From Alphaproteobacteria bacterium (GTDB lineage: Bacteria; Pseudomonadota; Alphaproteobacteria; RF32; CAG-239), in contig SUUK01000005.1 of assembly GCA_015062535.1 (NCBI GenBank), positions 998-64,997 of the forward strand: a DNA stretch of 64,000 nucleotides, written 5' to 3'. The notes below the pieces were generated by a model. That model did no database searches and was not told the DNA's origin. It saw only the letters and a program-made list of their open reading frames with translations. Below are positions 57,565 to 59,928 of the stretch, piece after piece (positions within the stretch are counted from its first letter, which is position 1; every line of letters starts with the position of its first letter). A program made the translations under genes and the position numbers.

Positions 57565-57670
57565 CAATAATTATTTTTGCATTTTTGTCTAATTGTTTGC
57601 TTGACTTTTTAATTGAACACTATATAATAAGTGTATCAAGAGGAGATAACTTCTCTTTTTTTTATTTTAA
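57565..57670. promoter_or_regulatory. conserved ~105-bp element, copy 1 (plus-strand TTGACT-16-TATAAT at 57601..57628, then hairpin caagaggag/cttctctt + T7)
   Basis: About 85% identical to 59822..59928. The consensus promoter faces opposite to the ABC genes and is followed within 10 nt by a terminator-like hairpin. Confidence 0.6.
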
Positions 57671-57700
57671 AAGGCCCAAGAAACATCTTGAGCCTTTTTT
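57669..57700 (-). terminator. terminator of ABC paralog B (ggcccaag/cttgagcc stem with A/T flanks)
   Basis: Hairpin immediately 3' of the stop at 57702. Confidence 0.6.
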
Positions 57701-57701
57701 G

Positions 57702-59654
57702 TTAAGCTATTTTTGAAAATAGTTTTTGTTTGCTAATGATATCTTGTTTGGTTAGGCTTGATTTTAAGAATGGTGATGTTTCTATTAAATCAAGCGGTGT
57801 GCCGTCGCTTTCTATTTGGCCATCTTTTATTACTATCACCCTATCTGCAAGAGCTATTTCTGTTGGATTGTGTGTTACGAGTAACACTGTTTTATTTTTT
57901 GCTTTTTCTTTTAGGGTTTTCATAATCTTAAAGCTTAACACTTGGTCTAAACCAGTGGTTGGCTCATCTAATATCATGATTGGTCTATTGATTAAGAATA
58001 TACGAGCAAGAGCTAAACGTTGACGCTGACCACCTGATAATGCACATCCATCTTGACCTATTCTATGGTGTAAACCATCTTTTAGATTAGAAATATCTTC
58101 TGTTAGACCTGCAGAATCTAAAGCTTTATTTAATTCCTCAATACTTGCATTTTCTTTGAAATACTTTAAGTTATAGAGCAATGTTTGGTCAAAGAAGTGA
58201 ACGTTTTGGTCAACAAAAGCTATTTGTTTATTTATTTCTTCATCTTTTAAGGTTGTTAAATCCTTATTACCCAATTTTATCTTCCCTGCTGTTAAGTCAT
58301 AATCGTGACGGATTAGGCTCATTAGGGTTGTTTTTCCCTCCCCTGATGTGCCGGCTATTACTGTTATTTCACCAGAGTTAATTGTGGTTGAGATGCCTTT
58401 TATTACATTATTTCCACGTTCAATATTTTCTTTCTCACAAACTAAAGTTGTTACGTCTTTGATTTTTGGATATGAAAAGTGAATATCTTTTAAGGTTATA
58501 GCATTATCTTTTGATGTTAGTTTTTTAGAACCTGTTTTTCGCTCTAGCGCATGAGGGGTTACTAATTGCTTTTGGGTATCAACTATTTCATTACGATAGT
58601 CTAAAATATATTTTTTATACCACTGGATTAGCTGATAACTGCGCCATCTAAAAACAGAAGTTGCACTATAAATCAAAGCAAAACGACCAATCTCTTTTGT
58701 TTCTATAACATCGTTTAAGGCAATAATAGCAATAAATATTGCTAAAATCATATTTAAAATAAATGAAGATATATTGTTTATTTTATACTCAGCAAAAAGA
58801 ACTTTTAGAGAAATTTTAGTGTCTTTCGCCATTCTGGCTTTCATATTTTTTTCTTCTTGTTCTATTTTTATAGCATCTTGAGCAATAAAAGAATTAGCCA
58901 TTATATCTCTATTTGTTTGGCTTACTTTTATTTTAATAAGACGTTGCTTGTTTTGCCAATTTCTTAGTAAATAAGTGGCATAACCTCTAAACTCCATATA
59001 AAATAGACAAGATATTAGTGTAATGAAAAACAATTTTGGAGATACTGCTAGCACACTTGTTCCTGTTATGAAAAGTATAATTATACCCATGAACTCATCT
59101 AGTACGTCTCCTAAAAGATTTATTTTTTGGTTTGTAATTTTTTCTACCATTCCATTTAGTGATGCAGAAGAATTTACCTTAAAAAATGGGCGGGGTTTGT
59201 TTATGATTTCTACAAAACCTCTTGTTTGTTCTTTTTCATGATATTTATAACTTATTTTCCATCTAAAATAGTATCTAAGATTATTAAATACTGGCTCTAA
59301 CATTTTTGTAATGCTCAATAATGCCCAAAATACAATAAATGTTGTTATTGCATTAGGTGTATCTGATATTAGTGGAGGAAGGGCATTAAATACCAGCATC
59401 TCCATATAAGGTGTTATACCTTCTAATATTGCAGATATTGCCCCTATTGCAAACATTAAGTATACGTTCTTTTTACAGATAGAATCCATATCCTTATATA
59501 TTTGAAAAGCTAAAATAAATGGATTTATATCTTTTAGGGTGTTGGGTTTTATCCCTTTTGCAAAATTAATTATATTTTTTATATTTTGTTTTTCGTAAGC
59601 AAAAAAACTTAATGGTCGCTCATGAGAATGTGCTGACTTTTTAATATCAGTCAT
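57702..59654 (-). CDS. ABC exporter, fused TMD-NBD (paralog B)
   Basis: Same architecture as A. The N-terminal about 330 aa are only roughly 30% identical to A; the C-terminal about 285 aa are near-identical. Confidence 0.85.
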   Translation of the reverse strand: MTDIKKSAHSHERPLSFFAYEKQNIKNIINFAKGIKPNTLKDINPFILAFQIYKDMDSICKKNVYLMFAIGAISAILEGITPYMEMLVFNALPPLISDTPNAITTFIVFWALLSITKMLEPVFNNLRYYFRWKISYKYHEKEQTRGFVEIINKPRPFFKVNSSASLNGMVEKITNQKINLLGDVLDEFMGIIILFITGTSVLAVSPKLFFITLISCLFYMEFRGYATYLLRNWQNKQRLIKIKVSQTNRDIMANSFIAQDAIKIEQEEKNMKARMAKDTKISLKVLFAEYKINNISSFILNMILAIFIAIIALNDVIETKEIGRFALIYSATSVFRWRSYQLIQWYKKYILDYRNEIVDTQKQLVTPHALERKTGSKKLTSKDNAITLKDIHFSYPKIKDVTTLVCEKENIERGNNVIKGISTTINSGEITVIAGTSGEGKTTLMSLIRHDYDLTAGKIKLGNKDLTTLKDEEINKQIAFVDQNVHFFDQTLLYNLKYFKENASIEELNKALDSAGLTEDISNLKDGLHHRIGQDGCALSGGQRQRLALARIFLINRPIMILDEPTTGLDQVLSFKIMKTLKEKAKNKTVLLVTHNPTEIALADRVIVIKDGQIESDGTPLDLIETSPFLKSSLTKQDIISKQKLFSKIA

Positions 59655-59821
59655 GTAGAAAATCCTTCTTAAATTAAGTTAAACACTAAATAAAAATATG
59701 TTTGCCCGATTATTTGGGCTTATAATTTAAGAAAATAAAAATATTTGATGTTTGATATAATAAATCATTTTGTATCCTTATTAAATTTGCTCTTGTGTTA
59801 TCTCATTTAAATTTATTTAAA

Positions 59822-59928
59822 ACAATAATTATTTTTAAAATTTTGTCTATAAGTTTGCTTGACTTTTTAATAAATATGTGTATAATGAGAGTATCAAGAG
59901 GGGATAGTTCCTCTTTTTTTATTTTAAT
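59822..59928. promoter_or_regulatory. conserved ~105-bp element, copy 2 (TTGACT 59859..59864, TATAAT 59881..59886, hairpin aagagg/cctctt + T7)
   Basis: Same element as 57565..57670. Confidence 0.6.

Follow-up and report, generated by a model that had tools for sequence, protein, structure and literature searches.

A conserved, predicted promoter-terminator module opposite an ABC exporter operon in uncultured rumen and gut alphaproteobacteria

Two paralogous ABC exporter genes lie on the minus strand of a 64-kb stretch of alphaproteobacterial DNA (the window, that is, the whole stretch that was analysed), and upstream of each stands a copy of an element of about 105 bp (57564-57670 and 59822-59928). 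The element carries a promoter-like sequence that points away from the exporter genes and runs at once into a hairpin, which raises the question of what such an arrangement does. The original prediction offered two readings: a promoter-terminator unit on the strand opposite the ABC genes or, on the gene strand, a structured 5' leader. Alignment of the two copies gave 89 identical positions out of 107 (83%), slightly below the 85% or so first estimated, and confirmed that the element is conserved; outside it, identity is 56% over the remainder of the leaders and 57-60% in the 5'-most 1 kb of both ABC genes. An nhmmer profile found the element twice and no more in the 64-kb window, at 84-88 bits, with nothing further there above the level of generic promoters. 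The features of both copies are listed in Table 1.

Table 1. Features of the two element copies and their surroundings (window positions; P_div, promoter pointing away from the ABC genes)
Feature	Position	Strand	Remark
ABC exporter paralog 1, 651 aa	55488-57443	-	C-terminal 260 aa nearly identical to paralog 2
Left block, copy 1	57564-57591	-	TAGACA 57591-57586; TATTGT/TTG at 57569-57564
P_div -35 TTGACT, copy 1	57601-57606	+	Sequence match
P_div -10 TATAAT, copy 1	57623-57628	+	16-nt spacer from -35
Predicted transcript of about 29 nt, AUCAAGAGGAGAUAACUUCUCUUUUUUUU, copy 1	57635-57663	+	Start predicted
Terminator hairpin AAGAGGAG-ATAA-CTTCTCTT, copy 1	57638-57657	+
T-run T8, copy 1	57656-57663	+
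Second hairpin with A-run/T-run flanks, copy 1	57669-57698	+
ABC exporter paralog 2 (ABC2), 650 aa	57702-59654	-
Leader hairpin GCCCAAATAATCGGGC	59704-59719	-	Between uORF and ABC2 start
13-codon uORF MIYYIKHQIFLFS-stop in ABC2 leader	59727-59768	-	SD AAGGA 59779-59775
Candidate operon -10 GATAAC, copy 2	59797-59802	-	17 nt past TTGTTT; putative
Left block, copy 2: candidate ABC operon promoters	59820-59849	-	TAGACA 59849-59844; TATTGT 59827-59822; TTGTTT 59825-59820
P_div -35 TTGACT, copy 2	59859-59864	+	Kept in 17/17 aligned copies
P_div -10 TATAAT, copy 2	59881-59886	+	16-nt spacer; kept in 17/17 copies
Predicted transcript of about 28 nt, AUCAAGAGGGGAUAGUUCCUCUUUUUUU, copy 2	59893-59920	+	Predicted start 7 nt past -10; end in T-run
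Terminator hairpin AAGAGGGG-ATAG-TTCCTCTT, copy 2	59896-59915	+	Two G-U pairs, plus strand only
T-run T7 of intrinsic terminator, copy 2	59914-59920	+
Second hairpin with T-rich tail (CGTTTGTTTTT), copy 2	59926-59955	+
460-aa protein	59963-61345	-	Conserved co-directional upstream neighbour of module

The promoter had been described as perfect. The site was found in both copies, but TTGACT-16-TATAAT matches the TTGACA/TATAAT consensus at 11 of 12 positions. Both P_div sites are the best two sigma-70 sites in a 7-kb region, and an A/T-rich, UP-like tract precedes them. Two tRNA genes in the window carry TTGACG-17-TAAATA and TTGCAA-17-TATAAA behind A/T-rich DNA, which indicates that the organism uses a consensus of the TTGACA/TATAAT type; P_div lies closer to it than either tRNA promoter. 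Matches of 11/12 are not unusual here: the window has 4, and Markov-1 random windows average 3.6. A lone match is therefore ordinary in such AT-rich DNA, and the significance of P_div comes from the comparison with other genomes. The composite pattern, by contrast, is more than chance would give, with 0 matches in 100 shuffles.

Transcription from P_div is predicted to start near 57635 and 59893. The hairpin and T-run that had been placed close to this start were both present (8-bp stem, T7-8), but the stem begins about 3 nt past the predicted start rather than about 10 nt. The predicted transcripts fold at -8.0 kcal/mol (z -2.8) in copy 1 and -9.9 kcal/mol (z -2.6) in copy 2; across all variants, stems of 8-12 bp at -8 to -15 kcal/mol precede T6-9 on the P_div strand, with z-scores of -2.4 to -2.9 each against shuffles. 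The T-run is always on the P_div side of the hairpin, and in most variants the hairpin is 2-4.5 kcal/mol more stable on the P_div strand by virtue of G-U pairs, which turn into A-C mismatches on the gene strand, where UGAUAC follows the hairpin. Adjacent second hairpins likewise have their U-tract on the P_div side. From its flanks, the one at 57669-57698 reads as a bidirectional terminator that would end ABC2 and back up P_div termination; the one at 59926-59955, which is followed by A-rich sequence on the gene strand, reads as a back-up terminator facing P_div.

A covariance model aligned well, at 34-56 bits for all 17 copies (the two window copies and those of relatives), in which the inner stem and loop vary. 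The inner pairs alternate among A-U, G-U and G-C. However, with purines only in the 5' arm and pyrimidines only in the 3' arm, slid registers pair equally well, and the covariation in the structure-guided alignment was not significant, its score being reached by 62 of 500 shuffles. RNAalifold on a MAFFT alignment shifted the register and was left out of the evidence. Neither strand matched an Rfam family, whether the search took the whole window at gathering scores or 57400-60000 at E values up to 10, and the sub-threshold matches in 57400-60000 were chance ones of 23 bits or less. A small ORF in the transcript was rejected, as the window-type copies have no start codon and the ATG that the L007 clade carries in its loop is not conserved; so was a CsrA-type GGA loop motif, which is missing in L002. 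No overlap of the predicted RNA with an annotated gene or its UTR, of the kind expected of a cis-antisense RNA or type I antitoxin, was found: it is wholly intergenic and overlaps only a possible read-through RNA.

Recurrence in relatives had been set beforehand as the test on which the idea could fail, and the module was found in about 15 independent contigs. Besides the window copies, 15 others precede the orthologous ABC operon (L001, L002, L005, L007, L009b, L010, L016, L020, L026, L031, L032, L034, L043, L050 and L051), nine GTDB species genomes included. The nhmmer scores were bimodal, with true copies at 54-94 bits and generic promoters at 26 bits or less. CTTGACTTT and TATAAT are unchanged in 17/17 copies, always with a 16-nt spacer whose sequence varies, and the start region TATCAAGAG is kept in 16/17, L050 alone having TATAAAGAG. 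The module is retained even where ABC protein identity has fallen to 45-53% and the remaining leader is unalignable. Asymmetric consensus hexamers at a fixed 16 nt around a free spacer mark a promoter rather than an operator. Together with the T-run on the promoter side and G-U pairs on that strand only, these results favour the promoter-terminator unit opposite the ABC genes. As to the anatomy, we consider it very probable that promoter and terminator are both real and under selection; the best reading of the sequence is that they make the predicted RNA of 27-31 nt. Conservation in at least 10 related uncultured rumen and gut alphaproteobacteria argues that the module is a selected control module.

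The pattern of occurrence also defined what the module belongs to. The element had been thought to accompany each ABC gene, and it proved to be tied to the operon instead: in one clade it precedes a lipoprotein gene located before ABC, L009a has an intact ABC paralog without the element, and L045 is an orphan copy without ABC. At least one lineage, that of L009a, can thus do without the element; there, a deletion of about 165 bp took out the element up to the SD of the leader uORF. On the terminator side, 16/17 copies have a co-directional gene as neighbour, its 3' end turned towards P_div. L045, where P_div points to a co-directional HD-domain gene about 205 nt past the terminator, breaks the rule that P_div always faces a 3' end; this HD gene is missing at all other loci compared. 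A second, degenerate element upstream of it aligned weakly, driven by A/T content, and is not claimed.

The neighbours are ABC, GNAT, the 460-aa protein and an aldolase; phage genes are absent. The ABC protein is a generic MsbA/HlyB-type exporter below every curated cut-off, and Pfam/NCBIfam gave nothing for the 460-aa, 314-aa and 156-159-aa neighbour proteins. A phage, plasmid or mobile origin was rejected, since phages, plasmids and IMG/VR viral contigs gave A/T-rich partial chance or generic-promoter matches of at most 26 bits, as was a dispersed REP/MITE-like repeat, given a single copy per ABC operon and one orphan besides. Among more distant ABC relatives, neither the human-gut contigs, at 27-32% identity, nor a 755-aa group had the element or an analogous opposite-strand promoter with hairpin. 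A pattern scan of GTDB gave 38 matches, of which 10 were true copies, 7 an unrelated repeated promoter-bearing element in the MAG LL7.bin50, and the remainder ordinary promoters, mostly of Firmicutes, with an SD-like AAGAGG behind them. The core pattern is thus not diagnostic by itself.

The left third of the element has an invariant TTG and T(A/T)GAC(A/G). The promoter of the ABC genes had been called not obvious; this left third most likely holds it. It offers two candidates on the gene strand, both using the same invariant TTG. In copy 2 the left block reads TAGACA-16-TATTGT (9/12), and TTGTTT is the other candidate -35; in other clades -10-like hexamers (CATATT, CATAGT, TATAAA) also lie at 17 nt. 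Between P_div and the invariant gene-strand TTG, the spacing varies among clades by no more than 1 nt, although the DNA is rich in homopolymers. About 33 bp lie between the two -35 regions, or 8 bp if the operon -35 is T[AT]GACA. In the L007 clade only about 80 nt separate P_div from the SD of the lipoprotein gene, and they contain TTGATT/TTGAGG-17-CATATT. This clade and the L009a deletion up to the uORF SD both speak for an operon promoter inside the element. Because the left third fits a gene-strand operon promoter, the element as a whole would be a complete back-to-back divergent promoter region.

Such a promoter would likely start the operon at or just beyond the left edge of the element, which speaks against the structured 5' leader on the gene strand. 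There is also no room for a promoter further upstream, where the element directly adjoins the preceding gene's stop codon or terminator, the hairpin is weaker on the gene strand, and Rfam has no match. The ABC2 leader itself, outside the element, has the layout of a leader-peptide attenuator, a conserved uORF with an SD and then a hairpin before the main start. The uORF peptide is identical in L001, L005 and L034, and L009a has MIYYIKHQIFLIS with a synonymous change. The hairpin at 59704-59719 is a possible attenuator candidate; uORF and hairpin occur in some leader types only.

As a whole, a compact divergent promoter region acting via polymerase traffic is the best explanation, and we give it about an even chance. 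The right two thirds of the element would work as a small transcription unit of their own, read opposite to the ABC genes, and a polymerase starting at P_div would release the hairpin RNA almost immediately, with a second terminator of the same direction backing up the first in several genomes. The left third would be the weaker promoter of the ABC operon. By sharing upstream DNA with it, the strong P_div may set polymerase access there (promoter competition). Since P_div fires head-on towards the co-directional upstream gene, it may also shield the operon promoter and the uORF leader from read-through (insulation), and the terminator would stop P_div traffic from becoming antisense RNA to that gene. 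That the function is this control of polymerase traffic in cis, and not the RNA itself, is a tentative choice to which we assign somewhat less than an even chance. The fixed spacing between P_div and the TTG and the neighbour's 3' end facing P_div in 16/17 copies are consistent with cis action, and the short RNA would be mainly a by-product. Loops and inner stems vary freely, so there is no conserved seed in the loop.

A pure by-product does not explain the invariant TATCAAGAG, which would fit the 5' end of a functional RNA or a DNA-binding site. The main alternative is that the 27-31-nt RNA is the functional product, a minimal sRNA resembling the Hfq type, whose conserved 5' end AUCAAGAG would lead into a terminator hairpin and U-tail. 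It would act in trans on a target containing CUCUUGAU, or in cis as a perfect antisense to upstream read-through RNA, leading to cleavage or termination at the operon boundary. The conservation of TATCAAGAG goes beyond what the terminator stem needs, L050 keeps the 5' AAGAG though its 3' partner has changed, P_div is predicted to be strong, and a 5' seed followed by a terminator is the layout of many enterobacterial sRNAs. However, only about 3 nt at the 5' end would be single-stranded, with the rest of the conserved octamer in the stem base; the loops vary; inspection by eye found no conserved complementary site in the operon leaders; and an RNA acting in trans needs no fixed spacing or orientation to the operon promoter. 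Its length of about 28 nt would fall below that of any established base-pairing sRNA known to us. We regard a functional RNA as unlikely; if real, it would rank among the shortest bacterial regulatory RNAs.

The same architecture could also serve to load polymerase. Single-molecule work showed that E. coli polymerase often stays on the DNA after intrinsic termination and can re-initiate at nearby promoters in either orientation, turning by means of its alpha-CTDs (PMC6978322, PMC6978380, PMC10372574, PMC11364550). By analogy, P_div would capture polymerase, which would terminate about 28 nt on, slide or flip, and re-initiate at the weak operon promoter about 100 bp off, so that P_div would activate the ABC operon. 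A strong promoter, an immediate terminator and a weak opposite promoter within about 100 bp at fixed spacing, with an A/T-rich tract common to both promoters, match the geometry of this retention and re-initiation (PMC6978322, PMC6978380, PMC10372574, PMC11364550). This support is purely architectural, however, and competition is predicted equally well by the same architecture; the in vivo relevance of post-termination sliding is unsettled, and L009a does without the module. We consider loading improbable.

Slightly less probable still is that P_div is not used as a promoter in vivo, its hexamers being protein-binding or UP-type determinants of the operon promoter and the hairpin the terminator of the upstream gene. 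In L001, L002, L007 and L010 the hairpin indeed starts 5-10 nt past the upstream stop codon and is the sole hairpin there, and a dimeric regulator could bind the imperfect inverted repeat GTCAA-N9-T[TA]GAC, to which T[AT]GACAAA and GTCAAG contribute the arms. The U-tract, however, is on the wrong side for the upstream gene, the gene strand has the A-C mismatches and UGAUAC noted above, and two exact -35/-10-type hexamers at fixed spacing remain the signature of a promoter. An evolutionary leftover (the promoter and leader-attenuator of a lost divergent gene, as the layout before the L045 HD-domain gene might suggest) or the OFF state of an invertible promoter, which a strong promoter pointing away from the adjacent gene resembles, is very improbable: a relic would not keep 12/12 hexamer positions, hairpin and T-run across clades with 45% identical ABC proteins, the HD gene occurs at L045 only, and an inverton was rejected on finding one orientation in 17/17 copies from independent assemblies and no conserved flanking inverted repeats, the flanks holding A/T low-complexity matches that differ between the window copies.

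If, as in the preferred polymerase-traffic explanation, it is the act of transcription that matters, the module would be a natural cassette, compact in form, for insulation, competition or polymerase loading, and would bear on whether cells use promoter interference and post-termination recycling. Its parts are close to the E. coli consensus, so the 105-bp cassette lends itself to work in standard hosts even with its source bacteria uncultured, and might make a useful synthetic-biology part. Under the loading alternative it would allow a direct test of polymerase recycling in vivo and, if that alternative were true, would be the first dedicated genomic element exploiting the alternative transcription cycle.

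Divergent non-coding promoters and intrinsic terminators are each ordinary, but a consensus promoter capped by its own terminator at about 28 nt, at a fixed distance from an operon promoter and in many species, belongs to no described class. The constructs of the recycling studies share its geometry, with a promoter, an intrinsic terminator and an opposite promoter in sliding range; unlike the module, they are in vitro single-molecule constructs, accompanied by genome-wide correlations, and that literature appears to describe no natural dedicated promoter-terminator loading unit (PMC6978322, PMC6978380, PMC10372574, PMC11364550). Minimal Hfq-type sRNAs resemble it in a conserved 5' end, terminator hairpin, U-tail and an own intergenic promoter beside a possible target operon, and differ from its RNA of about 28 nt with about 3 unpaired 5' nucleotides and no Rfam match. 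The lambdoid PR'-tR' unit makes a constitutive short '6S' transcript of about 194 nt, with a sigma-dependent promoter-proximal pause and antitermination by Q. The module shares a strong constitutive promoter, as predicted here, and transcripts ending at a nearby terminator. A TATCAA overlaps the predicted P_div start (about +1) and matches TATAAT at 4/6. Unlike PR'-tR', however, the predicted transcript is about 28 nt long, the last T, which is critical, is replaced by A in TATCAA, neither a Q-like gene nor a phage context was found around the module, and there is nothing downstream to antiterminate save the HD gene in L045. In bmrB-bmrCD, efflux ABC genes are controlled by attenuation through a leader peptide encoded by a uORF; the ABC2 leader, not the element, resembles it in having a short uORF with an SD and then a hairpin upstream of the ABC start. 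Finally, E. coli has, in the crp divergent-RNA promoter, a non-coding promoter that points away from its partner and limits it. The module likewise has, within about 100 bp of a gene's promoter, a divergent promoter that makes no protein and whose occupancy by polymerase may control the partner; unlike crp, P_div has a dedicated intrinsic terminator about 25 nt past the start, lies near consensus instead of depending on an activator, and forms part of a block conserved across many species.

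Both intergenic regions upstream of the ABC paralogs (57564-57670 and 59822-59928) carried, on the plus strand, the promoter, hairpin and T-run that the original prediction had placed there. We refer to this promoter, which points away from the minus-strand ABC genes, as P_div. In both copies, the -10 of P_div was followed by 5 variable bases and then by TATCAAGAG, and a T8 or T7 run came directly after the hairpin. The predicted RNA would be 27-31 nt long, with ~3 unpaired 5' nucleotides. Identity between the copies, put earlier at about 85%, was measured at 83%, against 56% over the rest of the leaders. 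Composite patterns gave exactly 2 matches in the window and 0 in shuffles, and a profile search of the window found no third element copy. Promoter matches at the 11/12 level were not rare in this A/T-rich DNA (4 found versus 3.6 expected), so the case rests on comparison with other genomes.

Coordinates of the features in the window and at the orphan-copy locus
Feature	Coordinates	Strand	Remark
TTGACT-16-TATAAT (P_div)	57601-57628 and 59859-59886	plus	sequence of both copies
8-bp hairpin, AAGAGGAG-ATAA-CTTCTCTT or AAGAGGGG-ATAG-TTCCTCTT		plus	one form per copy
13-codon uORF MIYYIKHQIFLFS* with its own SD, AAGGA	59727-59779	minus	upstream of ABC paralog 2
Hairpin GCCCAAATAATCGGGC	59704-59719	minus	between uORF and start of ABC paralog 2
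460-aa protein, no family match	61345-59963	minus	first in transcription order
ABC exporter paralog 2, 650 aa	59654-57702	minus	second in transcription order
ABC exporter paralog 1, 651 aa	57443-55488	minus	third in transcription order
L045 (coordinates listed)	3067-3765	minus	orphan-copy locus
L045 (coordinates listed)	3968-4077, 4322-4408, 4706-4810	plus	orphan-copy locus

We searched for further copies by two separate routes, one with ABC homologues as anchors and the other with a degenerate DNA pattern run against a GTDB set of one genome per species. The expected recurrence in relatives was borne out, as both routes together yielded 15 further copies, with nine species-level MAGs among them. 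Profile scores were bimodal, at 54-94 bits for true copies and <=26 bits for generic promoters merely fitting the search pattern. In the 17-sequence alignment, CTTGACTTT and TATAAT were invariant, the P_div spacer was fixed in length (16 nt) and free in sequence, and TATCAAGAG was invariant save in the relative L050, which reads TATAAAGAG. The inner stem and loop varied across the 17 copies and were always followed by a run of 6-9 T. This pattern held in a clade with just 45-53% identity in the ABC protein and an otherwise unalignable leader. It has the hallmarks of a sigma-70 promoter under selection with an intrinsic terminator behind it, opposite the ABC strand. For comparison, the promoters of two tRNA genes in the window read TTGACG-17-TAAATA and TTGCAA-17-TATAAA and are preceded by A/T-rich DNA. 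The sigma-70 consensus is therefore in use in this organism, and P_div is nearer to it than either tRNA promoter. The element was not found in more distant ABC relatives, phages, plasmids or viral contigs; it matched no Rfam family, had no conserved flanking inverted repeats, and occurred in a single orientation in all assemblies.

In the distant ABC relatives without the element, the exporter gene follows one for a conserved 77-aa protein, MLDR.D.LD.K..R.RS..YYQSIRP...ALPPIYW (L054 2258-2491; L084 3595-3828), a possible partner or substrate for this branch of exporters. The proteobacterial MAG LL7.bin50 contains 7 near-identical copies of an unrelated ~130-nt repeat (L011, L022, L023, L027, L036, L037, L047) that carries TTGACT-17-TATAAT and then TATCAAGAGG; it may be an IS-element end or another multicopy element.

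The T-run of the hairpin sits on the P_div side; when the gene strand is read, UGAUAC comes after the hairpin instead. Because the G-U pairs of several variants turn into A-C on the gene strand, the P_div-strand RNA was more stable by 2-4.5 kcal/mol in 11 of the 17 copies. The gene-strand RNA was clearly more stable in L045 only, and three other copies (L010 and L051 among them) favoured it by ~0.5 kcal/mol. All variants folded better than their own shuffles (z -2.4 to -2.9). Purines alone make up the 5' arm and pyrimidines alone the 3' arm, and the inner stem pairs alternate between A-U, G-U and G-C among copies. Covariation in a covariance-model alignment was not significant, since 62 of 500 shuffles matched the observed value and slid registers pair equally well; accordingly, we treat the hairpin as conserved without claiming proof from covariation. 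Adjacent hairpins (59926-59955; 7177-7199 in L005) also have a U-rich tail on the P_div side and are predicted to act as tandem terminators facing P_div, which would be evidence for an active P_div and for selection against read-through.

These two hairpins and a third (L009 ~7665-7695) lie after 460-aa-type genes, with A-rich sequence on the gene strand and the U-rich tail opposite, so that these genes lack their own canonical intrinsic terminator. This orientation is kept at L009a, one of the two ABC sites of L009, where the element is deleted.

In the left third of the element, T[AT]GAC[AG]AAA and a TTG 21 nt further on, read on the gene strand, were also invariant in the alignment, at distances from P_div that varied by <=1 nt. 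One reading makes the TTG the -35 of a weak promoter, TTGnnn-17-nAnAnn, as in TTGTTT-17-GATAAC (copy 2), TTGATT/TTGAGG-17-CATATT (L007 clade) and TTGCAT-17-TATAAA (L009b, the second L009 site); another places it within the -10 of TAGACA-16-TATTGT. On either reading, the operon promoter would lie inside the element or at its edge, because P_div and the next SD are only ~80 nt apart in the L007 clade, the operon promoter of copy 2 has to be upstream of the conserved uORF, and a ~165-bp deletion in L009a took out the hairpin through to the uORF's SD. The element would thus be a back-to-back divergent promoter region, with predicted starts ~100 bp apart.

The 13-codon uORF was conserved also in L001, L005, L034 and L009 (7628-7806), and the L009a version, MIYYIKHQIFLIS, has a synonymous change (ATC to ATT). 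The uORF and the hairpin after it suggest that the exporter is controlled by leader-peptide attenuation. A different short uORF, M(V/I)LLPRCDM*, lies just upstream of the ABC start in two diverged loci, L002 (~9858-9887) and L010 (~9797-9826), and uORFs may be common throughout this exporter family.

The module is linked to the operon, not to each single ABC gene. In the clade of L007, L010, L026 and L043, it is followed by the gene for a 140-162-aa protein whose signal peptide is of the lipoprotein type, and then by the ABC gene; L009a is without the module, and the orphan copy in L045 has no ABC gene beside it. On the P_div side of L045, an HD-domain gene lies ~205 nt past the terminator, and on the operon side are two paralogous 28-codon ORFs, MSIGFLKIFVTMCCLFIAAFGEGDKKKD and MNIGFFKSIVILCCLFVAAFGSEDKKKD, which resemble lipoprotein signal peptides ending in a charged tail. 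The remaining 16 copies all have P_div directed at the 3' end of an upstream gene that runs in the operon's direction (460-aa protein, GNAT or other ABC).

The ABC proteins are generic MsbA/HlyB-type exporters that score below every curated NCBIfam cut-off. Their close family is small (~32 full-length relatives) and comes only from metagenomes or Alphaproteobacteria-labelled MAGs, mostly rumen/gut. The two paralogs are 57% identical overall, with ~35% identity in the transmembrane half and almost identical C-terminal ~260 residues. In the DNA, identity is 57-60% over the 5' 1 kb and 85-100% over the 3' 800 nt, and the near-identity continues into the 3' flank, at 96% across 300 nt. This points to a recent gene conversion confined to the ATPase half. 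Types of promoter spacer and of hairpin in the element have also been reassorted between genomes (window, L005, L016, L034, L009b, L032).

A zeta-toxin family protein (PF06414, E 4e-46; 61582-62478, minus) adjoins the 460-aa gene. Elsewhere in the window (G+C ~33%), positions 1-9000 hold a tandem gene series built of ~40 units of a 99-nt (33-aa, ankyrin-like) repeat, its genes separated by 7 copies of a ~62-nt element with a hairpin (GATCCCTTGACGTTTTGC...GCAAAACGAGGGAT). Positions 18766-18865 (plus) reach the Rfam gathering score for RF03531, an sRNA of Clostridioides difficile that lies within a helicase gene; in this apparently alphaproteobacterial genome, the match probably reflects a conserved coding segment.

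Sequence comparison showed a predicted promoter and terminator anatomy that is conserved, at fixed spacing to the gene-strand promoter-like block, and it makes this reading of the module very probable. Our preferred reading is a cis role exerted through the occupancy and traffic of RNA polymerase, because the loops and inner stems are free and the spacing and orientation to the operon promoter are fixed. Competition for shared upstream DNA would be one part of this role, head-on insulation from upstream read-through would shield the operon promoter and uORF leader, and the terminator would block antisense transcription. The main observation that cis traffic leaves unexplained is the invariant TATCAAGAG, which keeps in play a functional tiny RNA (with CUCUUGAU-type sites as would-be trans targets), a sigma-dependent pause or a DNA-binding site.

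As a 105-bp cassette of consensus parts, the module is directly testable in standard hosts and hence of moderate interest. Its geometry would also suit post-termination recycling of polymerase onto the operon promoter, and such recycling has been seen in single-molecule work (PMC6978322, PMC6978380, PMC10372574, PMC11364550). Judged by its conservation, the element appears to be a real and previously undescribed variant of the divergent non-coding promoter.
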